Part shown: one piece after another, positions 11,181 to 46,671 of the stretch
Layout: every line of letters begins with the position of its first letter
How positions within the stretch are numbered: the stretch's first letter is position 1
Assembly: GCA_000092065.1 (NCBI GenBank)
Contig: CP000583.1
Reading direction: 5' to 3' (one strand)
DNA length: 64,000 nucleotides
Source of the DNA: Ostreococcus lucimarinus
Lineage: Eukaryota
The notes under the pieces: model-generated
Seen by the model: the letters and a program-made list of their open reading frames with translations, nothing else
Told to the model about the DNA's origin: nothing
The model's database searches: none
Position numbers and translations under genes: made by a program

Positions 11181-12568
11181 ATGGCTCGCGCGTCCGCGCA
11201 ACGCGCGCTCGCCCTGCTCGACGCAGAACGCGACGAAGACCCTCTCGCGTACATCGCGCGCGGTAACGCACGCGTCGTGCGCGAAAACTTTCTCGATCTC
11301 ATCACGGTGCGCACGCACGATTCCAATCCAAGTTGGTTACCTTTTACTGACGTAAAGCGCAGCGGTTTCCCTCGCTCACGGTGCGAGACGACGATTATTA
11401 TCACAACGATGGCTCGCGCGAGCGATTGCTGTGCGCGGAAGGGACGATACCGATCGAATACAACGGTGCGAGGTATAACATTCCGGTGAAGATGTACGCG
11501 CCCAGCGACTATCCGACGACGCCGCCGACGTGTTTCGTGACGCCGACGAGAGATATGGTAGTAAAACCGAATCACGGGTGCGTGGAATCAGATGGAATGG
11601 TGGTGATCGAACGCGTGTTTCGATGGGATCGTCGGCGGAAGATGAGCGATGTGGCGCGGGCGCTGAGCGACGTGTTTAGCGCGGAGCCGCCGCTGTTTTC
11701 GAAACCGGCGCGCGGGGTAGGGAACGCGGGAGAGGCGACGCAGCGCACGGCGACGGCGTCGACGGCGGAGACGAGACCAGAACGAGTCCCGTTTAGCGTG
11801 TCTGTCGAACGACGACCGAGTTTGAACGAGCGTTTCGCGCAAGGGCAGCGAGCAACGACGAGTCCGCGCGCCGACGACGCGACGGCGGCGCAGGCGTGGT
11901 TTCGTCAAACAGCGATACAGTCTTTGACGGATCGCTTGAAGTCTGGCACCGAACATCATTTAGATGCAAACGCACAGCTCATCGAAACGCTCTTGGCGCA
12001 TCAAACCGAGCTTTACGCGAGAAAGATTAATCTAGAACAGGAAAAGGGCGTGTTGCGATCGATGTGCGATCAGTTTGAACGCGACGCGCAGGAGCTCAGA
12101 GGGGCGACGGCGACCATGGAACGGTGGCTTGAAGCGCACCCAGACACAGGAGAAGTGTCGTTCGATCCCGAAACCGCGATCGAAGCCGCCGACGCGATGA
12201 GTCGTCAGCTCTTAAACGCGCACGCCAAGGATGCAGCCATCGAAGACGCGCTCGACGCGTTGGACGAACTCCTCAACGACGGCAAAGTCCAACTCGAAGA
12301 CTACATGCGTCAGGTGAACAAACTGTGCAAAGAACAATTCATCGCTCGCGCTGAGATACTCGTCGTGTCGAGGATGCAGCAAGAGCGCGGTGTGACGAAT
12401 GGCTTGGCGCCGCGCGACGACGGCGCCGAATCGCCGCGAGACGTCGATTTCGATTTTCTTCGCCCGCGACCGCCGCAATCATCGCCGCCACCGCGCGAGA
12501 CGCGCAAACCACCGCCATCGTGGAATTCAAATTCAAATTCGAATCCGACCGGGTGGTGGGATTGTTAG
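11181..12568 (+). CDS. TSG101: ESCRT-I subunit TSG101/Vps23 (UEV domain, coiled coil, C-terminal steadiness-box region); exons 11181..11306 and 11363..12568 with a 56-nt intron
   Basis: UEV core NDGSRERLLCAEGTIPIEYNGARYNIPVKMYAPSDYPTTPPTCFVTPT matches TSG101 [48 protein letters not shown]. Exon 1 ..ENFLDLIT joins RFPSLTVRDDDYYHNDGS in frame. The intron is GTGCGC...tactgac...GCGCAG with a branch-point-like TACTGAC. Confidence 0.8.
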
Positions 12569-12637
12569 ATTGTTAGATTGTAGAAACTTACGAGTCGCGC
12601 GACTCGTAACCGCCGCTCGAGCGCCACACCGCGCCTG

Positions 12638-13405
12638 ATGGACAGCGGCTCGTTCACGCACGCCGCGCCCTCGCACGTGGACACGAGCACGGAGTGGGAC
12701 GACGCGCAGGCGCGGTTAGGGAACGTCAAACCCAAGCCCAAGCCCGCGAAACCGGAAAAGTTTACCGCATCGTTCGACGACGCTGGCGCTTTGGCGTCGC
12801 GACGAAACGACGCCGTCGACGCGTCGACGAGCGATGGCGATGACTTTGACGACGACGACGACGACGCGTACGTTCGCGAGTACCGCGCGCGGCGAATGAA
12901 GGAACTCACCGCGGAGGCGACGGCGAAGGCGCACGGCGAAGTGCGCGAGGCGACGCGAGCGACCTTCGTCGCCGAGGTGACGCGACCGAGCGCCGACGCG
13001 TACGTCGTCGTCCTCATGACGCGAGCGGGATGTCGCGATTGCGAGAAAATGGAGCGCGCGTTTGAAATTTTGGCCGCCAAGTTTCCGCGCACGAAATTCG
13101 TGAAAATCGCGCACCGCGAGTGCGTTCCGAATTATCCCGACCGTCTCGCGCCGACGGTTTTGGTGTATCGCGACGAGGACGTGGCGAGGACGTACGCCAC
13201 GCTCGCCCCGTTCGGGGGCGAGCACATGACTCCCGAGGGCGTGGAGCTCGCGCTGAGAGAGACGAGCGCGGACGTGTGTCCGAGCGCGTCGGACGAGAGC
13301 GAGGCGGACGTCGCGCGTCGTCGCGCGGCGTACGTCGCCGGCGTGCTCGAGCGCGCCGTCGACGCGGCGAGACGCGAGGCGAGCGCGGACGCCGTCGACG
13401 ATTAG
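12638..13405 (+). CDS. Phosducin-like protein (PhLP3/PDCL3-type, thioredoxin fold)
   Basis: Has TEWDDAQARLG, an acidic D-rich stretch and the thioredoxin-like core VVVLMTRAGCRDCEKMERAFEILAAKFPRTKFVKI...TVLVYRDEDV. A clean ATG is at 12638. Confidence 0.7.
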   Translation: MDSGSFTHAAPSHVDTSTEWDDAQARLGNVKPKPKPAKPEKFTASFDDAGALASRRNDAVDASTSDGDDFDDDDDDAYVREYRARRMKELTAEATAKAHGEVREATRATFVAEVTRPSADAYVVVLMTRAGCRDCEKMERAFEILAAKFPRTKFVKIAHRECVPNYPDRLAPTVLVYRDEDVARTYATLAPFGGEHMTPEGVELALRETSADVCPSASDESEADVARRRAAYVAGVLERAVDAARREASADAVDD

Positions 13406-13543
13406 CGAGCGCGTCGACCGTCGGCATCTTGTACGTATACGTAGCAGCACGCATCGACGCGTCGCTTCGTCGCGCTCGTCGTCTCGCGTCGCCGTCGCCG
13501 CGCGACCGACCGCACACCGCGCCCCGCCGCGCGCTCGGGGACG

Positions 13544-14050
13544 ATGCGGCGCGTCTCGCCTCCTCCGACGCGCGTCGTCGCCCGCGCCCGCGCCCGCGTC
13601 CCGCCCTCGCCGAACGCGGCGCTCGTCGAGCGCGTCTGCGTCGCCGCGCTCGCGTCCTTCGTCGTCGCCTCGTCGTGCGCGCTCGACGCCGACGCGGCGA
13701 GCGCGACGCGGTTCGCGGGCGACTACGCCGATCCCAACCATCCGGGGTGTCCGCGCGCGATCGACGCGCGAGGAAACGTCTCGGGCCTCGACCCCGTGCC
13801 GTTCGCGCGCGGTCGAGGATGTCGAGGCGTGAAGAAGACGGACGCGAACAGGGCGGCGTCCAAGTTCAAGGCGTGGACGATCAAGGGCAAAATAAACAAG
13901 GCGGACGACGAGATCACGATCGATTTCGATCAAAAAGACGGCTCGGGCGAGCGGGTCGTGGGGAAGTTGACGCCCAAGGGCGACGTCGCGCTGCCGGACG
14001 GAACGATTTGGAGACGAAAGAGCGACGCCGACGCGTGGACGCCGCGATAG
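13544..14050 (+). CDS. Hypothetical small secreted protein (signal-peptide-like N-terminus)
   Basis: ATG at 13544. Hydrophobic VCVAALASFVVASSCALDA is followed by a non-repetitive 120-aa domain. The surrounding antisense ORFs are Arg-rich junk. Confidence 0.4.
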   Translation: MRRVSPPPTRVVARARARVPPSPNAALVERVCVAALASFVVASSCALDADAASATRFAGDYADPNHPGCPRAIDARGNVSGLDPVPFARGRGCRGVKKTDANRAASKFKAWTIKGKINKADDEITIDFDQKDGSGERVVGKLTPKGDVALPDGTIWRRKSDADAWTPR

Positions 14051-14257
14051 GCGCGCGCGTCTCGATCTGTGACCGATTTGTGACCGATTTGTGAAGCGTT
14101 TCGTTTCTTTTCGTTTCGCGCGTCGTTCGCTTTCGTCTTCGCTCGATCGCTCCTTCGTCGTCGTCGCCTTCGTCGTCGTCGCGTCCGGTCCGAGTCCAAT
14201 CCGGATTCGTAACCGACCGAGACGACGACGCTCGTGGACCGCACTCTCGCGCGCGCG

Positions 14258-17200
14258 ATGTTCACGTCCGCGCGCGAGGTCCTGGCGAAACAGACGGAAA
14301 CCGACGCGTCGTCGCGCGGCGACGACTCGACGCGCGCGCGCGACGCGAACGCGCCGAAACCGTCGTTCGACGTCGACGCCCAAGATGCCAAAAACATCGC
14401 GCGCGCCGAAGCGAAAGCCGAACGCATCGCGCGCGCCGAGGCGAAGCGCAAGCGAAGAGACGACGAACCGAAGCAAACGTCTTTAATCGACGCGTGGCGA
14501 CGCGGTGGGGCGCGAGCGTCGACGTCGGACGTCGGCGTCGGCGGCGATGTCATCCGACGGTTGTTGAGCTGCGCGCCGACGAGTTTCTACGCCGACGCGC
14601 GATTGGTGTGCAAGGCGTGGCGAGACGCCGTGGACGATCCGAAGTTCATGCCGTGCGTGAAACTCAATCGAGCGCTCGCGTTGGGTGGCGCGCGCGCGGA
14701 TGCGGCGGAGGCGTACTTGAATGAGGTCACGGGACGCGAGCCGGGAGACGCGGGCGTCGGGCCGTTGGCGAGACACGCGGCGACGACGAAGACGCTGTTC
14801 AAATCGCGATTGGACGTCGAGACGTTTTGTCGATTCGTGGAGGAGGATGAACACTTATCGGGGGCGAGAGATATACGTGGGGAAGTGCAACCGGGGTACG
14901 ACGAACCCGATGATTTGACGAAGATTGATGATTTTTGGCAGTCGCTCGGTACGGCGGCGTCGCGTTCGTTTCTAGGCACCGTCGGCGACGTCGCGGCGAC
15001 GATTCGGGTGATCGCGAAATTTGCGTGCGTTCAAGAGCCGATCACGCGCGGCGGCGAGCGCGAGGCGGACAACACGCGAGCGAACGGCTGGGCGGTGTTG
15101 GTTATCGCGATGACGCACGTCGCCGAAAACGAATGGATCGCTTCTCGGTTGCTTCGAGCGGCTCGACGCGCACTTCGAAGCGACGCGAGCGCGGAATTCG
15201 TTGAAGAAGACTTGACCGAGTTTGTCAATTTGCTCATCGCGTACGTGCGCTTGGAATCGAGATCATACGCAGACGCATCCGAGCCGGCGAAAGTCCACGC
15301 ATGCCGACGTATGAAGGCGCGATTATCGGCCGCGTACGATTACGCCAATCTTCACGACGAACGGGAACAAAACTCAAGCGACGCAGATTTGAAAAATGTC
15401 GTGGGGAATTCGAGCGCCGCAACGCGTCCGACGGATACGATGCGAAAAACATCGAGATTGACACACGAACAGGAAGCCATCGTCTCGACGAGTTTGCGAC
15501 CACCGCAATGGATGGTCGTGCACGCGTTCGCGGGATCGGGCAAGACGACGACTTTGGTCGAGTACGCGAAGAGAAATCCTTCGAAACGATTTCTTTATCT
15601 CGCGTTCAATCGTGCCATCACGGAAGAAGCCAAGACAAAGTTTCCAGCGAATACGGACGCGAAGACGTTTCACGGATTAGCGTACGGGCTCGCCACGTGG
15701 TACAAGGCGGGAGGTAAAAAACTACACTTCGGCGACAAGCTTCGATCGTCCGAAGTCTGCAAAGCGCTCGGAAAATCAATCAGCGATCGGGCTGTGGGCA
15801 AAGGTTTGGTGACGCTCCAAAACTTTCTAGTTTCTGCCGATGAAAATATTTCAAAGGAGCACGTGCCCACGGAAGGTGTTAAACCTGCGTCTGTGGACGA
15901 AATCATTCAAGTTGCCGAGACGTTGTGGCGTATGATGAAGGACCGATCGAGCAACGATGTGCCGTTGACGCACGCCGGCTACATGAAGCTCTACCAACTG
16001 CAACGTCCGCGTCTGGATATCGACATGAGTAGAAATAAAAACAAGACGGGATATGACGTCATTTTGCTGGACGAAGCGCAAGATATCGCACCTGTGATGT
16101 TTGATATCGTTCTTCGGCAAACGAAATGCGCAAAGATTCTCGTCGGAGACGTACATCAACAAATTTACAACTTCACCGGAGCTATGAATGTGATGGATAA
16201 AATCGATGATCTCGTGGCTAGCCATCAAGTGACGCACAGGCGGCTTGTGAGAAGTTTTCGTTTCGGTGTGGAAATCGCCAATGTCGCAAACGCTATCTTG
16301 AACATAAAGCGCGAGAGCGCATTCCTTGTCGGCGCGCGATTGAGCGAGCTGGATCAAACGTGCGTGTTCTCAACGGAAAACGTTGCGTCTAGCGACCCGA
16401 GATTGAAGACAGTACGAGGTCCGCCGCCCTTATCTACTGTGATCGTAGGAGACGGGCGACGCGAGCAACTGGCGGTTCTGGTTCGATCGAATTACAATCT
16501 CATTTCGGCTTTGATGTATCTCGAATCCTCGCGTTCGAAAGTGCACGTCATCGGTGGCGTCGACGCGCTCAAGCTCGACCAAGTGTGTGATTTCGTGCGT
16601 TTGATACTCGACGAAGATCTAGGATCCATCAGCGACCGATACATCAAAATGTTCGTCACGTACGGCGGCGGCGATCTGGCTAGGTTTGATCAACGGCAAG
16701 ACCAAGAGAGTTTTGTTGAGCGCAACGCGCTGACGAGGATATATGAAATCGCTGAGAACCAAGACGACGCGGACACTCTCAATCGAATACGCATCGCGCA
16801 AAGTTACCGCGAGAAGATGTTCAAACTCGTCAAGCGATTGAAAGATAGCTCATTCCTTTCGAACGAGCCCAACGCAAACTTCATCGTCGCCACGGCGCAC
16901 AAGTCCAAGGGGTTGGAGTTTGATAACGTGATGATATGGGACGATTTTGAAGACGTCGATCGGGTCTGGCGCAGAGGGGACAAGTACGTATCGATCAGTA
17001 CAGATCCGGTTTTCGGCGACGCAGACACCTTGGTCCCCGTCGATGAAATCAATTTGACGTACGTGGCCGTGACGCGGGCGAAGAAACGCGTTTTCTTGAA
17101 CAAAAGCATCGCCACCCTCTTGGCGTTCCCGTCGCATGGAAACGTCCCGATGTACGACGAAATCGCGAACGGTTTCGCGCTCTTTCCAGAGAGATTTCCA

Positions 17201-17893
17201 CTTCGGCAACATCGCGCCGCAGATAGAGGCCTCTCTCCGTACGTGCTTCGACGCGTCGAGTTTCATCCGAACGACCTCCAGGCGACGCATGAAAGCGTCC
17301 TGAATGCGCTGAGCTGGAATCCCTTGTTTAACGGGTTCCATGCGTCGATGGGCACCGTGCAAGTGCCCGGCGAGGGCGCGAGGCCAGTTCGCATAGAAAG
17401 GCCAGTCGATGGGAACGTGTGTCAGTGTTGTATCCATCGCGTTGGCGATCTTGAAGACATGCCATTATTGTTGGGCACCTTCGTCTGGCAAGTCGACCTC
17501 AAGAGTGGTCTCGTGTGCGTTTCCGACCGCGGCGTCGAGCAACGAGTCTGTACCGCCGATTCCGGCGTGCGCTTCGCGACCGCCGACGGCGACGCCAAAG
17601 ACGCGCCGCGGTTCCGACGCCCCGTCGACGATTACGGCGATGCAAACCACCACGATCCCGCGCATCCGAGAATTTACGCGCTCCAAAATCCTCCGTATCT
17701 CTTCCGCACGCGACGCTGCGCCGGATGCGTGGATCCCGCGCGAGCGCGCGAGAAGCTGCGCGCGTTAGAGTTCGACGCGTACGAACGCGACGAGTTCTCT
17801 CGCCTGCCGCTGTTTCACACCATGCGGTACGAGAATCAACTCCGGCACGACGTCGCGATCAGCCGTAGAGAAAAGTTCATCACAGTGAAATGA
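14258..17893 (+). CDS. FBH1: F-box DNA helicase, FBH1/FBXO18-like (F-box plus UvrD/PcrA-family SF1 helicase), with an additional about 300-aa C-terminal domain of unknown function
   Basis: F-box-like VIRRLLSCAPTSFYADARLVCKAWRDAV. Helicase motif I MVVHAFAGSGKTTTLVEYA, motif II ILLDEAQDIAPVMFDIV, and the UvrD-like C-terminal half (IVATAHKSKGLEFDNVMIW...YVAVTRAKKRVF). First ATG is at 14258. The track start 14234 is GTG. Confidence 0.75.
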   Translation: MFTSAREVLAKQTETDASSRGDDSTRARDANAPKPSFDVDAQDAKNIARAEAKAERIARAEAKRKRRDDEPKQTSLIDAWRRGGARASTSDVGVGGDVIRRLLSCAPTSFYADARLVCKAWRDAVDDPKFMPCVKLNRALALGGARADAAEAYLNEVTGREPGDAGVGPLARHAATTKTLFKSRLDVETFCRFVEEDEHLSGARDIRGEVQPGYDEPDDLTKIDDFWQSLGTAASRSFLGTVGDVAATIRVIAKFACVQEPITRGGEREADNTRANGWAVLVIAMTHVAENEWIASRLLRAARRALRSDASAEFVEEDLTEFVNLLIAYVRLESRSYADASEPAKVHACRRMKARLSAAYDYANLHDEREQNSSDADLKNVVGNSSAATRPTDTMRKTSRLTHEQEAIVSTSLRPPQWMVVHAFAGSGKTTTLVEYAKRNPSKRFLYLAFNRAITEEAKTKFPANTDAKTFHGLAYGLATWYKAGGKKLHFGDKLRSSEVCKALGKSISDRAVGKGLVTLQNFLVSADENISKEHVPTEGVKPASVDEIIQVAETLWRMMKDRSSNDVPLTHAGYMKLYQLQRPRLDIDMSRNKNKTGYDVILLDEAQDIAPVMFDIVLRQTKCAKILVGDVHQQIYNFTGAMNVMDKIDDLVASHQVTHRRLVRSFRFGVEIANVANAILNIKRESAFLVGARLSELDQTCVFSTENVASSDPRLKTVRGPPPLSTVIVGDGRREQLAVLVRSNYNLISALMYLESSRSKVHVIGGVDALKLDQVCDFVRLILDEDLGSISDRYIKMFVTYGGGDLARFDQRQDQESFVERNALTRIYEIAENQDDADTLNRIRIAQSYREKMFKLVKRLKDSSFLSNEPNANFIVATAHKSKGLEFDNVMIWDDFEDVDRVWRRGDKYVSISTDPVFGDADTLVPVDEINLTYVAVTRAKKRVFLNKSIATLLAFPSHGNVPMYDEIANGFALFPERFPLRQHRAADRGLSPYVLRRVEFHPNDLQATHESVLNALSWNPLFNGFHASMGTVQVPGEGARPVRIERPVDGNVCQCCIHRVGDLEDMPLLLGTFVWQVDLKSGLVCVSDRGVEQRVCTADSGVRFATADGDAKDAPRFRRPVDDYGDANHHDPAHPRIYALQNPPYLFRTRRCAGCVDPARAREKLRALEFDAYERDEFSRLPLFHTMRYENQLRHDVAISRREKFITVK

Positions 17894-17973
17894 AACGCAG
17901 AAGAGTCGCCGCCGCGCCGTCGCGACAGCCACGCCCGCCGTGCAAACCGCGCCACATCTCGGCGCGTCGCGCG

Positions 17974-19470
17974 ATGCCCGCCGCCCGATCGAACGCCCGC
18001 GGCGCGTCCGCGACGACGACGAATACCGTCGACGACGCCGTGACGCGCGCGTTCGGCGCGAGCGGCGCCGCGCGATCGAACGCCGCGCGCGCGAAGCGAA
18101 AGAATTTCGCATCGGGAACCGCGGGCGCGTCGCGGACGGTCGCGGCGGAGCGCGAACGCGCGATCCCGAAGGGCGAGGCGTGCGACGCGCTGCCGATGGA
18201 CTGGACGATCAAGTCGAGCGTGCGGTTGAGCTCGCGGGCGAGGTCGTTCCGATGGGGGACGTGCGCGGGGGCGAACGCGACGTCGGAGGGACTGCGGGCG
18301 TACTCGGGCGGCGACGCGTCCTCGTTGAGCATCGACGGTGGAGAAAGCGGCGACGGCGGCGACGACGACGAGGCGAGGTTGGAGAAGAAACAGAAATTGC
18401 TGACGCGGGCGATGTATTCGTGCGCGTATCCGGAGCTCGGGCTTTCGGATGAACAGCTGGCGTCGATGCGGGCGACGCCGAGCGGAAACGAGTGGGTGCG
18501 GAAACGCGAGTCCATGTGGGTGGATGCCTTGGTGAGTCTGTACGGGTTGCTCAAAGTGAGGCAATGCTATGCGTTTTACGTCGTCTATCGCGAGCGGAGC
18601 ATCTTGTTCTGCGCGCCGGGCGTGGGAGGGGTGACGGATGGCGGATACGCCGTGGTGACGAATAGCAACGCGAAGATTCGAGCGGCATTGAAGGACGCGG
18701 CGGTAGATTTCACGAGCGCGGACGAAGAGGCGCTGGCGATCGGCAAAGCGAAAACTGTGTGGGCACAGAAATGGCGACCCGAGGACGAGACGCAAGGGTT
18801 GCTAGACAACCTGGCCGGCGACGACGCGAGCCGAGCGGAAATCACGGCGCATTTGGCCAAGATGGATAACCCAAGCAACGCTCGTCGCCGAGCCGCGGAT
18901 ACGATCATATGCCGCGGCGCGATCGCGGTGAATGGACTGTTGAACGTTCTAGTCGAAGCCTCCGGGGGTGATCCCGGAAGTTCCGACGGCGCGCAGCACG
19001 ACGTACCGATATTGTTGGCACCCGTACCGTTCGCGCACAGCTCGATGAAACCTTTGGAGCTCAAGGCACAAACGAACACGATGTTGTCTCGCAAAGACGG
19101 CAAGAATGCAAACGCACTGTACCAATCATCCAACGCGACGTCGATGCAAACGGTGTACACGGCGGAGACGGATCGCGACGAACTCATTCCGCCGTGGACG
19201 CTCGCGCGCGTTTGCGCGGCGTTGGCGCTCAACCATGAAGACATATCTGCCACGTGCATGACCCACAAGCCTACGCACGGCTTGAACGTTGGCGTCTTAG
19301 CGGCGCGCGATATGTCGGATTCCAACACCAAGCATCGCGAAGCCGTCTTGGTTCGCGAGTGCGCGTATTACGACGAAGCCGAGACGTCGCGCATCATGGC
19401 GCCGCCGCCGCTCGGTTCGTCCGTGCTCTCGCGCATCGAGTACGTCAACGGGACGTATTATATCCCTTAG
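17974..19470 (+). CDS. Hypothetical conserved protein, unknown function (start uncertain; the ORF is open from 17890)
   Basis: 526-aa ORF with non-repetitive segments (WVDALVSLYGLLKVRQCYAFYVVYRERSILFCAPGVGG...). The first in-frame ATG at 17890 overlaps the FBH1 stop (ATGA), so a downstream ATG at 17974 was chosen. Confidence 0.4.
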   Translation: MPAARSNARGASATTTNTVDDAVTRAFGASGAARSNAARAKRKNFASGTAGASRTVAAERERAIPKGEACDALPMDWTIKSSVRLSSRARSFRWGTCAGANATSEGLRAYSGGDASSLSIDGGESGDGGDDDEARLEKKQKLLTRAMYSCAYPELGLSDEQLASMRATPSGNEWVRKRESMWVDALVSLYGLLKVRQCYAFYVVYRERSILFCAPGVGGVTDGGYAVVTNSNAKIRAALKDAAVDFTSADEEALAIGKAKTVWAQKWRPEDETQGLLDNLAGDDASRAEITAHLAKMDNPSNARRRAADTIICRGAIAVNGLLNVLVEASGGDPGSSDGAQHDVPILLAPVPFAHSSMKPLELKAQTNTMLSRKDGKNANALYQSSNATSMQTVYTAETDRDELIPPWTLARVCAALALNHEDISATCMTHKPTHGLNVGVLAARDMSDSNTKHREAVLVRECAYYDEAETSRIMAPPPLGSSVLSRIEYVNGTYYIP

Positions 19471-38435: not shown

Positions 38436-40229
38436 ATGCTGAATGGTAAAGGGCGTTCGCCGCGCGCGCGCGCGGCGCGAGCATTGACGACGTCGTCGCA
38501 CGCGCGCAGGCTCCTCGTGAAGCGCGCGTTCAACAGACGCGCGTTGGAGACGCACCCAGACAAAGGAGGCGACGCGGACGCGTTCCAAGCGATGTACGAG
38601 GCGTTTCAAGAGCTCAAACAAGCGTTTCTCGATGGCTTCTCGGAATTCGCGAAGTGCATCGAATCGGCGCCGGCGAAGGCGAAGGCGAAGGCGAAGGCGA
38701 AACGAACGATGGTAGACGCGCCAGAACTCATGGGTAAGCGACGGACGATTCCACCGTACGAGTTCTTTCAAACCGCCGCTGAACGAGACATTCCGTTCTG
38801 GAAAATTGAGTTGGCGGCGTCGGGCAGAGCTCGCTGCACCGGCTCGCGCAAGTCCCTCGGCAGCGTCGGTCGCTGTCGAAACACCAATGAAGGATCGAAG
38901 GTGGATCAGCCGAGAAGCGTGGGTCCCGGTCCCGGTCCCGGTCCCGGGTCATCGAGAGCGCTCGTCGCCGACGTGTTCGGAATCATCAAGAAGAACGCTG
39001 TGCGCGTGGGCTTAATGGATCCAGAATCTGGCGCGTACTGCCGATTCGTTCATTTGCGATGTTGGCGTGTGCCTCAGGCGGTGTGGTACAATCTTCCGCA
39101 GTACCCCGACGATACGACTGAGTATAGCGTCGATGAGTTCAAAAGACGCTTGGTCGATATGGACGGCGTCGTCTTCGTCGGGTTGAACAAACTTTGCGAT
39201 GAAGACATCACGCTCGTCGCCGAACACGCGATGAATCAGGAGGCGTGGGCGGCGTTCAATCAGAAGAAATATGTCGCCGCTCGAGCTGCTGGCCTTCCGT
39301 CATCGCGGGTTCAACTTCTTTCGAAAGACGAAATCAAAGTACTGCAGAAACTAATGTCGAAGGCGACGTCTTTAGTGCAAGAACCAGAGCAAGACGAACC
39401 GCTCGCCGCGGTGACGAAGCAGGAATCAAAACCGGAACCAAAACGAACGGACCACGATGAGTACGACGTCGTGACTGATGACGACGAACACGAAGATGGC
39501 TTGCAAGTGGCGCCGAATGTCGGCACCGCGATCGCCGTGCAGAAACCAAAAGAGGAGAAGCCACCACCGAAGATTTTGATTCCCGTCCCTGGCGAAAACG
39601 GCGCAATCGCCAACTCACTTCTTCGCGACAATTCCAAACCCATGACGTTCGTGCTGACGGGAATTTTTCCGGATCTCGGAGGCGATCGAATCGGTCTGAT
39701 GCAAGGCAAAGACATGGCGGAAAAGCTGATTCAGCGGTTTGGAGGCGTCGTGCGGAGCGCGGTTTCAGGCGCAACTGATGTTTTGCTCGTCGGCGAAGAG
39801 CCAGGCGTTTCGAAACTATCAGCTGCGCGCACGAAAGCGAACTGCAAAGTTCTCAATCTCGAACACATCCTCGACATGATTCACGGGCGCTCCATTGAAG
39901 GGAAACGGTTGCAAATTGAAAGATTCAGCACAGGTTTTCATGGAAATTCGTTAGCGTACGATATGACGCGAGCCGAATTGGAAGAGCTACGGACGGGAGC
40001 CAAAGCGCTTCCTTCGACGATGAAAACAGAGGAGCCACAACTTCTACCATCGTCCAAGTCGACAACGCGTAAGCGCAAAGCTCTTCCTTTGTCCACGAAA
40101 GACGAAGCGCAAAAGAATTTGACGTTACCCGCACCTGATAAGCCGCCGCGAAATAAGAAGCCAAAACGCTCGCCGAAAGCGCCCGTGCGAAGCTCGCGTC
40201 GTCTCGCCGCACTGACGAACGCCGCGTGA
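38436..40229 (+). CDS. Protein combining a J-domain (HPD) segment, a PARP-type zinc finger and a BRCT domain; candidate DNA-damage factor
   Basis: J-domain helix II/III ..RRALETHPDKGGDADAFQAMYEAFQEL. zf-PARP: KIELAASGRARCTGSRKSLGSVGRC...YCRFVHLRCWRV, compared with PARP1 RVEYAKSGRASCKKCSESI...HWYHFSCFWKV. BRCT: MTFVLTGIFPDLGGDRIGLMQGKDMAEKLIQRFGGVVRSAVSGATDVLLVGEEPG. K/P-rich tail. Confidence 0.65.
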   Translation: MLNGKGRSPRARAARALTTSSHARRLLVKRAFNRRALETHPDKGGDADAFQAMYEAFQELKQAFLDGFSEFAKCIESAPAKAKAKAKAKRTMVDAPELMGKRRTIPPYEFFQTAAERDIPFWKIELAASGRARCTGSRKSLGSVGRCRNTNEGSKVDQPRSVGPGPGPGPGSSRALVADVFGIIKKNAVRVGLMDPESGAYCRFVHLRCWRVPQAVWYNLPQYPDDTTEYSVDEFKRRLVDMDGVVFVGLNKLCDEDITLVAEHAMNQEAWAAFNQKKYVAARAAGLPSSRVQLLSKDEIKVLQKLMSKATSLVQEPEQDEPLAAVTKQESKPEPKRTDHDEYDVVTDDDEHEDGLQVAPNVGTAIAVQKPKEEKPPPKILIPVPGENGAIANSLLRDNSKPMTFVLTGIFPDLGGDRIGLMQGKDMAEKLIQRFGGVVRSAVSGATDVLLVGEEPGVSKLSAARTKANCKVLNLEHILDMIHGRSIEGKRLQIERFSTGFHGNSLAYDMTRAELEELRTGAKALPSTMKTEEPQLLPSSKSTTRKRKALPLSTKDEAQKNLTLPAPDKPPRNKKPKRSPKAPVRSSRRLAALTNAA

Positions 40230-40303: not shown

Positions 40304-42145
40304 CTACCACGCATCAAAGTTGCCGAAACCGCCCGTCTTCGCCTTCTTCGGCGGCGGCGCGCTCGCAGCCGGCGCACTCGTGGATGCCGAGGCGACGTAT
40401 TTTCCCACGCCATCGGATGCTTTAGCCGCTGGTAATGCCGAGGCGTCCTTCGCTAGCGCTGCCGCGGGATCACTCCACCACGACCCGCGCTGACCTTGAC
40501 CGGTGCCATTCTTGACGTCTGCCGCCTTGGCTTTGGCTTCCGCTTCTGCGCGTTCCTTCTTGTCGTCTTCTTCGCGCAGTTCGTCGTATGGATTGGTGAA
40601 AATCGTGCATGAAGTGATTTTAATCGTCTTCAAAGGACGATCGGCGGCGTCGCATTCAACCTCTTCGATACGCGCGAGAGTTTCCATCCCGCCCACGACG
40701 CGTCCGAACACCGTGTGCTTGTTGTCCAAATGCGGCGCAGCATTGTACGTGATGAAAAATTGCGAACCATTCGTGTTCTTGCCGCTGTTTGCCATGCTCA
40801 ACACGCCGCGTTCGTCGTGTCTATGAGGGTTGCCCTTGATTTCATCCGCAAACTTCTCGCCCCATATGCAGTGTCCGCCTCTTCCAGTGCCCGTGGGATC
40901 GCCACCCTGAAGCATGAATCTTTTAATGCTTCGGTGAAACTTGACTCCGTCGTAAAATCCCTTTTCTGCGAGCGTGATGAAATTTTCGCACGTTCTCGGC
41001 GTCTTGTCGCAATGCAGCTCGATGTTCAAATCACCAAAGTTTGTGTGTAATCGAACGTATCCCTTCTTCGTCGGATTGTACCACACGATTTCCTCGGCGC
41101 GATGGTTCTTTGTGTGCGCCTCCATCGTCGTCGACGTGAACCCCATCGCACTGTGCCCAGTCGTGCGCATGTCGTTCGTTTTCGTCTTAAGAGTTACGAG
41201 ATACGGCGCCATTTCCGCCCGCCTTTTCGCCTTTTCCTTCTCCGTGCGTGTATCCAGGTCCACTCGTCCCGTCTCGTTTGTGTCCCAGGTGGAAGAACCG
41301 GGCTTGAACGTAATGTTATCCACCGGCGCCACGTACGCGGGTCCTCGCAGCAAGTGACTGTTGTCGACTGTGTCTGGCTTGGTTTCGATCCCGTGCTTCT
41401 TATTCTCCTCCGCATCTTTAGCCTTGGCGAGATTTAAAACCTCCTGCGCCTGCGCCGCCGCCGAACTCCCGCCTCGCGCGCCGATTTTTGCCGCCTCCTC
41501 GCTCCCGAGCGACGCCAACACACGACGCATGTCTTCGCTCACCTGCGTCTTGTTGATGCTTCCATCGTCTCCTTGTCCTTCTTTCCCCAATCCCTTCACG
41601 TCTAACCCGCGTTTCACGTGATCAAAGTTATCCAACGTTCGCGCCTTCAAATCCAACGGGTCCTGCAGCGTCACCACGTCGCTTCTCTTAAACGCCTCAT
41701 CCGTCAACAAATCCTTCCAGTTCTTCGTCTTAAAGCACAACTCTTCGATCGCATCGGTGCAATACACGTTTCCAGTCGTCTTCACCGCGCATATCCGCGT
41801 CGCGTCCGTAAACGTCTTATTCAGCACCGGGCACTCGTACTCGCCGTCTTTATTCTTGTACCAATTCAACCGCACCAAATCCTTCACCGCCAGCGCCTCA
41901 CCGCTCACGGGGTGCTTCTTATGTTTCATCACGTACGGCACCGCGTTCGAGATGTCCATCACCGTCCCATCCGGCGCGCACACCGCGTTTTTAAACGGCA
42001 GAAACGAGATTGCGCAGCAGTGAAACGGCAATCGTCGAAACGGCGCGTCCGCGCCGCGATCCCTCCCACCGCCGCCGCCCTCGGCCGCCCACTCGCTCGC
42101 GGTGACGTACCCTCGGTCCTTCTTCGCCGTCTTGTTCCGTCCCAT
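40304..42145 (-). CDS. PPIL2: Peptidyl-prolyl isomerase-like 2 (PPIL2/Cyp60: U-box + cyclophilin)
   Basis: N-terminal U-box-like (RLPFHCCAISFLPFKNAVCAPDGTVMD) and cyclophilin core (GYVRLHTNFGDLNIELHCDKTPRTCENFITLAEKGFYDGVKFHRSIKRFMLQGGDPTGTGRGG...FGRVVGGMETL). Confidence 0.85.
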   Translation of the reverse strand: MGRNKTAKKDRGYVTASEWAAEGGGGGRDRGADAPFRRLPFHCCAISFLPFKNAVCAPDGTVMDISNAVPYVMKHKKHPVSGEALAVKDLVRLNWYKNKDGEYECPVLNKTFTDATRICAVKTTGNVYCTDAIEELCFKTKNWKDLLTDEAFKRSDVVTLQDPLDLKARTLDNFDHVKRGLDVKGLGKEGQGDDGSINKTQVSEDMRRVLASLGSEEAAKIGARGGSSAAAQAQEVLNLAKAKDAEENKKHGIETKPDTVDNSHLLRGPAYVAPVDNITFKPGSSTWDTNETGRVDLDTRTEKEKAKRRAEMAPYLVTLKTKTNDMRTTGHSAMGFTSTTMEAHTKNHRAEEIVWYNPTKKGYVRLHTNFGDLNIELHCDKTPRTCENFITLAEKGFYDGVKFHRSIKRFMLQGGDPTGTGRGGHCIWGEKFADEIKGNPHRHDERGVLSMANSGKNTNGSQFFITYNAAPHLDNKHTVFGRVVGGMETLARIEEVECDAADRPLKTIKITSCTIFTNPYDELREEDDKKERAEAEAKAKAADVKNGTGQGQRGSWWSDPAAALAKDASALPAAKASDGVGKYVASASTSAPAASAPPPKKAKTGGFGNFDAW

Positions 42146-44412: not shown

Positions 44413-46671
44413 ATGGCGACGACGACGCTGTGGGGATTCACGATCGGCGTGTTGTCTCGTGAAGAGGCGGCGGAGGAATTTTTCGGCAAGGCGACGCTTT
44501 GGATTTCCAACAACTTTACGTGGTTTTACACCTTGACGCAGAACGCGTGGATTTTCGTGGTGATTTTCGTGCTGTTTCGGAAAAGGTACGCAAACATCAA
44601 GCTCGGACAGCCGGATGATAGGCCTGATTATTCCGATCTCGTGTGGTTCACGTTGATTTTCACCACGGGGCTCGGGACGGGGATATTTTACTTTGGAGTG
44701 AGCGAGCCGATGTACTACTATCGTGATGATTCCAAACTTTTAGGAACAGCAACCAACTATATAGCGAAGATCCCGTTCATGAACGATGATCAAAGGGCGA
44801 ACATGGCGATGTTTGTCACTTTTTTGCATTGGGGTTTGCACGGTTGGGCGACGTACATCTTGGTCGCGCTGACGCTCGGCGTCGTGCATTACCGACTGGG
44901 CAGGCCGCTGACGCTTCGCAGTGCGTTTTATCCCATCGTAGGCGATTACGTCAACGGGCTGTTCGGCGACTTGATTGACTCGATGTCCATCGCTTGTACG
45001 ACGTTTGGGTTGTGCACGTCGCTCGGTTTGGGGGCGAGCAGTATCAATACCATCTTGCACCGCATGAGCGCTTCGATTCCTGACGACGACGACAACACGA
45101 AGTCGGCCATCATTTGGGGCATCACCGCGCTCACTACGGGTGCACTCGTAAGCGGGCTCCACCGCGGGGTTATCACTTTCGCCATTGTCGCCTTCTCAAT
45201 TCTACTTGCGCTGATTATGATTTTGTTCATGCTTGACAACACGTGGTACCTTGCAAATTCGTTTACGCAGCAAATCGGAACATACTTGCAGTACGTGATT
45301 CTCGGCGGATTCGACAATGACGCCATAGCGCAGCTGAACATAGAGTTTACGCAGAACGACACGCACTTGTGGGGTGCGCAAGGGATAAAACAATTAGTGG
45401 AAACGGCCTTGAACAAGACGCTTGCCGATCCGACGACGTATTACTCGAGCTCGCCGACTTCGTTCATGGATACGTGGACGGTATTTTACTGGGCTTGGTG
45501 GATCACTTGGGCGCCGTTCGTAGGAATGTTTTACGCTAAAATTTCACGTGGTCGCACCATAAGATCGCTTATTCTGGTCGGTATGTTTGCGCCGATGTTT
45601 TTGGGTTTCTTTGCTATTTCCGTCCTCGGATCGCTTGGTATTCGAATGCAACGCATCGCGGAATTGGCGCTCGGCGCTGCACCAGATTGGCAGAAAGGAG
45701 TTGTGAACTGCGGTGCCCTCGGGTATTTAGAAAACACACCCGTGAGTGCGGACGCAAAAAAGTTGGCCTCGGAGCTCGGAGTCTACGCCTTGGCGTGTCG
45801 AAAATCGACGGATAGAATTTTGGACATTCTTGAGCCTTACAAAAACTTGACGACGCTTTTACAAACCTTAGTTCTTTTGGGTGTGATTTTGTTCTTCGTC
45901 ACCTCTGCGGATGCGGGCGCGTTCGTGGACGACAAAATCGCCGCGAACGGCATGGAAAATCCTCCTGTTCTTCAAAAGGTGTGGTGGAGCATCACGCAAG
46001 GCGCCACCGCGCAGGCGTTGCTAAGCTCCACTAAAAACGGTTTGTCCACGCTTCAATCGGTGAGCATTTGTGCCGCTCTGCCGTACACGTTCGCGCTGAA
46101 TTACATGTGTGTAGCACTCTTTCGCGCTATGGACGAAACGAATGAGGATCCAACATACATGAAAATGCGGAAAGGTTTCAGCACATCCATCGTCGACGTG
46201 TTTGAGAATTTCCACAAGGCTGACGGAACGATGGCGACGAAACAAGCGTCGACAAAGGATCGCTTGCTGTTACTATTGCGCACAATTTTAAATCCGAGAA
46301 GGTCCTTAACGACGGCGGGCTTGGAACTCTTCAAGCCTCTCAGGCTGAGCGTGTTAAGTTTCGGTTACGGGCTGGTGCATCTTTTGTGGATCTTGCTCCT
46401 CGCGTTGTCGCCGTTGGACAAAGGCACGCACACGTTGGCGTGGTTGATGTACTTGATTTTCACATCAATCACGGCGGCCGTGCGTTATAATCTTAGGAAA
46501 AAGTGGTACATCATCGGTAACTTGATGGATGACTTTTTCGTGTGCTTTTTCTTTTATCCATTCGCGTTGGCGCAAATGCAGCTAGAGGTCGAGAGTCACA
46601 CGGGACGCGCCGTCGAGCACGGAAGAGCCAACTTTGTTCCGGCAAACACGATGAAAGCCGCCGACGACTAG
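44413..46671 (+). CDS. BCCT-family transporter (betaine/carnitine/choline type), bacterial-like, with a long C-terminal extension
   Basis: Hallmark BCCT motif WTVFYWAWWITWAPFVGMFYAKISRGRTIRS plus GLHGWATYILVALTLGVVHYRLGRPLTLRSAFYPI. First ATG at 44413 (track start 44383 is GTG). Confidence 0.8.
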   Translation: MATTTLWGFTIGVLSREEAAEEFFGKATLWISNNFTWFYTLTQNAWIFVVIFVLFRKRYANIKLGQPDDRPDYSDLVWFTLIFTTGLGTGIFYFGVSEPMYYYRDDSKLLGTATNYIAKIPFMNDDQRANMAMFVTFLHWGLHGWATYILVALTLGVVHYRLGRPLTLRSAFYPIVGDYVNGLFGDLIDSMSIACTTFGLCTSLGLGASSINTILHRMSASIPDDDDNTKSAIIWGITALTTGALVSGLHRGVITFAIVAFSILLALIMILFMLDNTWYLANSFTQQIGTYLQYVILGGFDNDAIAQLNIEFTQNDTHLWGAQGIKQLVETALNKTLADPTTYYSSSPTSFMDTWTVFYWAWWITWAPFVGMFYAKISRGRTIRSLILVGMFAPMFLGFFAISVLGSLGIRMQRIAELALGAAPDWQKGVVNCGALGYLENTPVSADAKKLASELGVYALACRKSTDRILDILEPYKNLTTLLQTLVLLGVILFFVTSADAGAFVDDKIAANGMENPPVLQKVWWSITQGATAQALLSSTKNGLSTLQSVSICAALPYTFALNYMCVALFRAMDETNEDPTYMKMRKGFSTSIVDVFENFHKADGTMATKQASTKDRLLLLLRTILNPRRSLTTAGLELFKPLRLSVLSFGYGLVHLLWILLLALSPLDKGTHTLAWLMYLIFTSITAAVRYNLRKKWYIIGNLMDDFFVCFFFYPFALAQMQLEVESHTGRAVEHGRANFVPANTMKAADD

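Follow-up and report, generated by a model that had tools for sequence, protein, structure and literature searches.

FBH1 (FBXO18) combines an F-box with a UvrD-type helicase core of superfamily 1A (SF1A), and its characterized properties, namely SKP1 binding, SKP1-CUL1-F-box (SCF) E3 ligase activity on RAD51, 3'-5' helicase activity and fork reversal, are known only for the human and Schizosaccharomyces pombe proteins. Fork reversal by the human enzyme needs its helicase activity and not its ligase activity (2025 review). The 2026 cryo-EM analysis of human SCF-FBH1 (PMC12946210) described a "unique alpha-helical NTD" (N-terminal domain) and, directly after the helicase, a C-terminal zinc ribbon "unique to FBH1", which packs on subdomain 2A and on the SKP1/NTD interface; a C925A/C928A mutant of this ribbon loses both ATPase and helicase activity. 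Here we describe a member of this family in the marine prasinophyte green picoalga Ostreococcus lucimarinus, encoded at positions 14258..17893 (plus strand) of a 64,000-nucleotide stretch of contig CP000583.1 (assembly GCA_000092065.1), hereafter the window. Unless stated otherwise, all features reported below lie on the plus strand and are given in window coordinates.

The gene is a single unbroken open reading frame (ORF) that runs from an ATG at 14258 to a stop codon at 17891-17893 and encodes 1211 amino acids (aa), of which aa 1-1190 are identical to XP_001416537.1 of O. lucimarinus CCE9901. An earlier annotation made from the letters alone (the sequence-only reading) had spoken of an alga-like genome, and was right in this respect. 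The extent of the ORF as delineated in the ORF list agrees with its colinearity with close Ostreococcus- and Bathycoccus-type orthologues (coverage 96-99%) and with its match to human FBH1. Its modules follow the order of the human protein: a disordered N-terminus with a box resembling the PCNA-interacting peptide (PIP), an F-box, a helical NTD, an SF1A helicase, a putative zinc module with four cysteines (Cys4, CxxC...CxxC) and a short helix. We consider it quite probable that this protein is the O. lucimarinus orthologue of FBH1/FBXO18 (KEGG Orthology K10300) and that its C-terminal tail is the zinc ribbon of that family enlarged by insertions. Near-identical environmental copies have already been auto-annotated as "F-box protein 18 (helicase)".

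Membership of the FBH1 family was apparent in both sequence and structure comparisons. A phmmer search of PDB sequences recovered human FBH1 (9xzj_F, E 7e-68) as the sole significant match, in three stretches spanning the F-box region (aa 95-179) and the helicase (aa 396-685 and 729-957). The next match was HelD with an E-value of 0.47; up to an E-value of 1 the list contained no chain of UvrD, Rep, PcrA or Srs2. An AlphaFold2 model of aa 90-1211, based on an alignment of 98 sequences, reached a mean predicted local distance difference test score (pLDDT) of 80.9 and a predicted template modelling score of 0.87. When this model was used as a Foldseek query, the top match was again 9xzj_F (E 2.7e-38, 919 alignment columns, template modelling score of 0.62 on the target), and the matches to UvrD, Rep and PcrA, at about 1e-16, were clearly weaker. 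The NCBIfam equivalog profiles gave only weak partial matches far below their cut-offs (uvrD 26.5 vs 1144, pcrA 24.1 vs 911, rep 20.1 vs 951). An identity as UvrD, Rep, PcrA or Srs2 was hence rejected on the basis of these thresholds, the lack of a PDB sequence match and the weaker structural matches. The designation "FBH1-like F-box/UvrD helicase" proposed by the sequence-only reading is thus well supported, also by the N-terminal profile match reported below.

The helicase core (aa 396-957; 15443..17128) displays the 1A/1B/2A/2B subdomain organization and scores above the Pfam thresholds for UvrD-helicase (PF00580, 9e-10), UvrD_C (PF13361, 1.9e-09) and AAA_19 (PF13245, 3.6e-11). Motifs I, II (DEAQD), III, V and VI do not vary among the orthologues, and the enzyme therefore looks catalytically competent. 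Specifically, in an alignment of 16 orthologues, G426, G428, K429 and T430 of the Walker A motif (motif I, AFAGSGKTT; 15524..15550) are invariant, and are also conserved in the 98-sequence alignment. The same holds among the orthologues for D605, E606, Q608 and D609 of motif II (Walker B, LDEAQD; 16067..16084) and for R940 and A941 of motif VI (TYVAVTRAKK; 17057..17086). Among the solved structures the core is nearest to FBH1, and its ATPase/translocase motifs are intact.

Upstream of the core, the F-box was delineated at aa 94-133 (14537..14656; VGGDVIRRLL...LVCKAWRDAVDDPKFMPC) from a PF00646 match close to the cut-off and from the alignment with human FBH1; the canonical LP dipeptide at its start is replaced by VG. 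PF00646 is matched by 15 of the 16 orthologues with E<=0.01, and the remainder of the F-box (LVCKAWRDAVDDPKFMP) is strongly conserved in Mamiellales and aligns with human LVCHLWREIISDPLFIP. All three of its helices are recovered in the AlphaFold2 model, with pLDDT values of 72-92. A profile-profile comparison (hhalign) of the regions preceding the helicase in Mamiellales and in metazoan FBH1 proteins returned a probability of 97.3% with an E-value of 2.6e-11 over 115 columns. This match spans the F-box and about 70 aa beyond it, to aa 203, and thereby enters the NTD that lies between the F-box and the helicase (14657..15442). The NTD was modelled mostly as helices, with pLDDT values that are mostly 80-96, and a joint MAFFT alignment with the metazoan NTD is colinear over its whole helical length, with an invariant E321 (E254 of alignment A4). 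The hhalign match, the colinear alignment and the helical model together identify it as the FBH1-specific NTD. When a hidden Markov model (HMM) of the F-box and NTD was run against 1.84 billion representative sequences, 244 proteins were recovered at E<=1e-10. The named full-length matches among them are FBH1 proteins of vertebrates, hemichordates, echinoderms, molluscs, tunicates and crustaceans, and the unnamed marine matches resemble the Mamiellales proteins.

Two segments are candidates for PCNA binding. In human FBH1 the F-box is preceded by a PIP box, QRCIPEFF (PMC3711418), and all Mamiellales orthologues possess a Q-x-[ST]-[LI]-x-x-[AMV]-[FWY] pattern 20-40 aa upstream of their F-box. 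In the window protein this is QTSLIDAW (aa 73-80; 14474..14497), located in the disordered N-terminus, with an invariant Q73. Its position 7, which is aromatic in the canonical box, is occupied by Ala, and PCNA binding is for this reason offered only as a hypothesis. The other segment, RYIKMFV in subdomain 2B (16637..16657), aligns in the phmmer match with human "dkfirrw", that is, with the AlkB homologue 2 PCNA-interacting motif (APIM; KFIRR) of the human protein. Relatives have KYIRR at this place, and the RYIKM of O. lucimarinus deviates from the APIM consensus, making APIM-type PCNA binding uncertain.

The region following the core (aa 958-1211; 17129..17890) has no match to a Pfam family, but is conserved and colinear in all Mamiellales orthologues. 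The most prominent features of this tail are two CxxC pairs, which we designate putative zinc knuckles. Knuckle 1 (CQCC, C1055/C1058; 17420..17431) has both cysteines invariant in a 13-sequence tail alignment, and C1055 is present in 16/16 orthologues. Knuckle 2 (CAGC, C1154/C1157; 17717..17728; block pLDDT 77) follows an invariant F1149 and is itself invariant in 16/16; in the tail alignment F1149, T1188 and all four cysteines are without exception. Between the knuckles lies a conserved beta segment, TFVWQVDLKSGLVCVSDRG (17477..17533), with a strand at 1083-1089 (block pLDDT 86), in which G1084 (at least 90% also in the 16-sequence alignment), L1085 and V1088 are conserved at a level of at least 90%. 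The tail ends in a helix with a PL..T...E motif (17792..17890; pLDDT 87-94 in the full-length model), characterized by the invariant T1188 and by E1192, which is conserved in at least 90% of the sequences. In the full-length AlphaFold2 model these conserved elements, namely the strand PYVLRRV, both knuckles, the strand GLVCVSD and the terminal helix, have block pLDDT values of 62-94, with the intervening segments below 50.

A comparable arrangement is seen in human FBH1, in which CCVGQC occurs about 37 aa after motif VI and is followed, after about 35 aa, by CHSC, corresponding to C925/C928. Knuckle 1 lies at +36 to +41 from motif VI in metazoan proteins, in P0025 (protist-like) and in the Mamiellales-type proteins with short tails (P0010-P0014), at +46 in P0015, and at +72 to +118 in the Bathycoccus-/Ostreococcus-type proteins. 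The distance between the knuckles likewise forms a series of 31-36, 66-69 and 89-104 aa. Given that the knuckles occur in the same place and that shorter orthologues bridge the spacing, the tail is most likely the zinc ribbon of FBH1 that two insertions have enlarged, supplemented by a conserved terminal helix. The insertions, one of about 75 aa ahead of knuckle 1 and one of about 65 aa between it and knuckle 2, would be lineage-specific and were mostly modelled with low confidence; the equivalence to the human ribbon and the binding of zinc are predicted from this comparison. The sequence-only reading had described the tail as a region of about 300 aa with Cys/His motifs and no obvious family. 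The Cys motifs it quoted (the two CxxC pairs) and the lack of a Pfam family stand, whereas the length is 254 aa; its notion of an "extra uncharacterised domain" is probably wrong in spirit, since human FBH1 has a ribbon with two knuckles in the same place and the insertions are short or absent in relatives.

Several results weigh against this interpretation, and against the orthology more generally. As regards the tail, hhalign comparisons restricted to it gave a probability of 0.5-1% between Mamiellales and metazoan sequences, and the best such comparison, between P0025 and metazoan tails, reached 11.6% with an E-value of 0.0026. A tail HMM retrieved nothing relevant from the PDB, a model of the tail in isolation had a pLDDT of 43, and the full-length MAFFT alignment paired algal knuckle 1 with metazoan knuckle 2. 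Moreover, the Ala/Arg-rich orthologues of about 1385 aa (P0016-P0023) show C-G-A-L in place of CxxC, lacking the second Cys of knuckle 1 (C1058) and retaining C1055 and knuckle 2, so that the Cys4 site is not universal in the family. An earlier match of the tail with an E-value of 9.6e-13 was discarded, as it was driven solely by the inclusion of helicase motif VI. Together with the absence of a Pfam family, the metazoan tail length of about 95-120 aa and the lack of clear metazoan counterparts of the strand PYVLRRV and of the terminal PL..T...E helix, these results could be taken to imply that aa 958-1211 form a separate, Mamiellales-specific Cys domain unrelated to the human ribbon. We consider this unlikely, in view of the shared position directly after motif VI, the shared two-knuckle Cys4 pattern and the graded spacing series that runs through P0025 and P0010-P0015. 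Furthermore, the low-confidence segments of the model coincide with the insertions, and the tail folds only within the whole-protein model, in line with the behaviour of a ribbon held against 2A and the NTD as it is in human FBH1. At the other end of the protein, the F-box of O. lucimarinus taken alone just fails the profile check that the sequence-only reading had suggested: PF00646 scores 20.2 bits against a gathering score of 20.5, 0.3 bits short, and the F-box-like profile PF12937 scores 15.6 against 24.3. The call is rescued at the family level by the orthologue matches to PF00646, the alignment with human FBH1 and the profile-profile match. The LP dipeptide is the most conserved SKP1-contacting element of F-boxes; its VG replacement is shared with an 89%-identical relative, and other Ostreococcus orthologues have [LV]S. 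All other Mamiellales-type and metazoan sequences with a locatable F-box start keep LP, with VP in P0025. SKP1 binding is accordingly not to be taken for granted, and one could conceive of an FBH1-derived helicase that has lost its SCF link and acts solely as a translocase or anti-recombinase, a scenario compatible with the dispensability of ligase activity in human fork reversal. Yet the rest of the F-box remains strongly conserved and alignable with the human one, its three helices are modelled at the pLDDT values given above, and purifying selection would not be expected on a non-functional F-box; we therefore regard such a loss as quite improbable.

The orthology itself has to be weighed against convergence, in which the ancestor of Mamiellales acquired a compact bacterial UvrD-like helicase and fused it independently to an F-box, giving rise to an analogue of FBH1. 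The core taken in isolation offers some encouragement to this idea. In a neighbour-joining tree (461 columns, 200 bootstraps) of Mamiellales, Metazoa and bacterial relatives, the first two groups were each recovered with 100% support and every deeper grouping with 24% or less. Eukaryote monophyly received 23%, so that algal and metazoan FBH1 are not united against the bacterial sequences; the mean core identity is about 36.7% for all three pairings of algal, metazoan and bacterial cores, and a search for shared indels specific to the eukaryotic cores found none. However, metazoan FBH1 is equally distant from the bacterial proteins, and the star-like tree is for this reason uninformative on the alga specifically. 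Common descent with FBH1 rests, as far as can be judged from sequence, on the shared accessory modules and not on the core tree. The N-terminal homology runs past the F-box into the NTD, the F-box and NTD profile retrieves full-length FBH1 from metazoa along with Mamiellales-type sequences, and the PIP-like box and Cys4 tail occur in the same order, all of which are lacking in the sampled bacterial relatives. The 62 bacterial core relatives that were sampled have no N-terminal extension (median of 27 aa before Walker A), and those with a locatable motif VI have tails of about 30 aa (median 30) devoid of CxxC. The algal protein, whose core is preceded by about 395 aa and followed by 254 aa, is unlike these compact helicases of about 490 aa, and we deem convergence highly improbable. 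A further alternative concerns the gene product. The downstream ORF (17890-19470), coding for a DONSON homologue of 526 aa, starts with an ATG that overlaps the FBH1 stop codon (ATGA), and the RefSeq model XP_001416537.1 (1658 aa) joins aa 1-1190 of FBH1 to aa 59-526 of DONSON via a predicted intron, GT(17827)...AG(18062). If this model were correct, the true product would be FBH1 spliced in frame to DONSON. In its favour, besides its existence in RefSeq and the overlap of the two genes, the proposed intron is bounded by GT and AG and leaves the reading frame intact, and a comparison of the DONSON ORF in two Ostreococcus species shows conservation from aa 62 onwards, beside the proposed acceptor at aa 59. 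Nevertheless, the intron would remove the conserved Y-E-x-x-L tail, including E1192, together with the stop codon, whereas all orthologues terminate 10-25 aa past T1188; the donor is absent at the orthologous locus L001, and about 280 nucleotides separate the two genes in two other lineages. The fusion as a true product thus appears extremely improbable, and the model is probably an annotation artefact, as judged from these comparisons.

The FBH1 orthology of the window protein, if extended to function on the model of the human and fission-yeast enzymes, would imply an ATP-driven 3'-5' single-strand DNA translocase which may act on RAD51 filaments and where replication forks have stalled, with RAD51 removal and fork reversal as its predicted outcomes. 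Its F-box would probably tether it to SKP1-CUL1-RBX1, in which case it could be an E3 ligase as well.

With respect to distribution, the sequence-only reading had held FBH1 to be described mainly from vertebrates and fission yeast. This agrees with the 2025 review, which lists it only in S. pombe and vertebrates, but understates the databases, in which our searches found it across Metazoa and hence beyond the range stated there. No protein of Viridiplantae other than Mamiellales was present among the best 120 core-search matches, which is weak evidence of absence from other green plants. Searches of the accessible literature for FBH1 in Ostreococcus or algae gave nothing relevant. Ostreococcus has been reported to possess an SRS2 homologue (PMC2790887), and would therefore carry both FBH1 and SRS2, as does S. 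pombe. A tentative and on the whole doubtful extension of these observations is that FBH1, being complete in its architecture in a prasinophyte, arose before Archaeplastida and Opisthokonta diverged and disappeared several times since, land plants and budding yeast being examples, and that the enlarged tail and the head-to-tail linkage with DONSON could reflect a lineage-specific coupling of fork reversal to a replisome factor. If true, such an ancient FBH1 would contrast with the view of this protein as a speciality of fission yeast and vertebrates.

Our searches also drew in numerous bacterial helicases (P0135-P0243) that stand alone, measure about 480-510 aa and match metazoan FBH1 in their closeness to the FBH1 core. 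Many bacterial stand-alone helicases without an F-box carry the JGI auto-label "F-box protein 18 (helicase)". Two further FBH1-type helicases, P0025 (1299 aa, from a marine metagenome) and P0153 (646 aa), contain a HIRAN domain (PF08797, E 2.5e-07), which P0025 combines with an F-box and with a tail of the CxxC...CxxC type. Given that the HIRAN domain of HLTF, a fork-reversal enzyme, binds the 3' ends of DNA, its combination with an FBH1-type helicase is suggestive.

Examination of the locus revealed ordinary nuclear genes as neighbours, coding for Vps23/UEV, a phosducin-like protein and a small ORF product, with the DONSON homologue downstream. The start of the FBH1 gene is supported by the N-terminus MF[ST]SA, with which all Mamiellales orthologues begin; in the window protein this is part of the motif MFTSAREVL (14258..14284), conserved in all of them and with an invariant F2. 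An alternative in-frame GTG at 14234, upstream of the ATG, would add 8 residues. The same-strand order Vps5/PX, Vps23/UEV, thioredoxin/phosducin-like, small ORFs, FBH1 and DONSON is kept in four Mamiellales lineages (loci L001, L003 and L004, and window 11381-19470), and the gap between the last two genes ranges from the 4-nucleotide overlap to about 280 nucleotides. DONSON is a replisome-assembly and fork-protection factor. The DONSON ORF of the window shares 50% identity (E 5e-115) with an orthologous ORF that matches PF27662; the same family is matched by its near-identical environmental copies, and the window ORF itself has no match in our local Pfam copy. A near-identical copy of the FBH1 protein, P0027, was found on genomic metagenome contigs only. 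Several long Arg/Ala-rich ORFs, such as 12716-14476 on the minus strand, lie opposite real genes; most likely they are no genes themselves but artefacts that arise from the high GC content.

The GC content of the FBH1 gene is 0.567 and that of its third codon positions (GC3) 0.667, which places it at the low end of the window. The sequence-only reading had remarked on a GC lower than that of the neighbours; this is correct for the two immediately adjacent genes (0.60-0.64) but is not distinctive, as three other long ORFs of the window match or undercut it (38436-40229, 0.564; 40304-42145, 0.567; 44413-46671, 0.514). A foreign origin was considered on account of the low GC and rejected: in GC and GC3 several other genes of the window are as low as this one or lower, and there is thus no sign of it.

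FBH1 has been studied almost solely in human cells and fission yeast, and the Ostreococcus orthologue widens the range of the family and bears on the question of when the fusion of F-box and helicase arose. Its host is among the smallest free-living eukaryotes and has a compact genome, and its sister species O. tauri offers an available genetic system. Two natural variants, an F-box that lacks LP and a putative zinc module split by long insertions, could serve to test which parts of FBH1 are essential. In addition, the probable misannotation of FBH1 and DONSON as one protein in RefSeq would mislead surveys of domain architectures.

Of the described systems, the classical SF1A helicases UvrD, Rep, PcrA and Srs2 share with the window protein the superfamily fold and the 1A/1B/2A/2B subdomains. 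The bacterial UvrD-like helicases that stand alone at about 480-510 aa, for example in Allochromatium, Propionivibrio, Chromobacterium and Desulfobacterales, are 31-38% identical to it in the core without large indel differences, but unlike it they possess neither an F-box nor the NTD, and their tails of about 30 aa lack CxxC. S. pombe Fbh1, which was compared by literature only, also joins an F-box to a UvrD-type helicase, limits Rad51-dependent recombination and coexists with Srs2; no fungal sequences were among the matches listed. The closest counterpart is human FBH1/FBXO18 (PDB 9xzj, 9xzl and 9xzm; PMC12946210), which is the best match in both sequence and structure and has the same succession of PIP-type motif, F-box, NTD, SF1A helicase, Cys4 module and short tail, with all helicase motifs conserved and the segment at the APIM position conserved in type. 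The two proteins are about 25-32% identical, and the algal one departs from the human one in the VG that replaces LP in its F-box, in extra loops of its NTD, in the Ala at position 7 of its PIP-like box, and in RYIKM as opposed to KFIRR. Its tail comprises 254 aa compared with about 95-120 aa, shows a displacement of knuckle 1 by about 75 aa, separates its two knuckles by about 95 aa as against about 35 aa, and ends in an additional conserved helix. The O. lucimarinus protein is hence no new type of system, and is a previously undescribed member of the known FBH1 family with lineage-specific elaborations.

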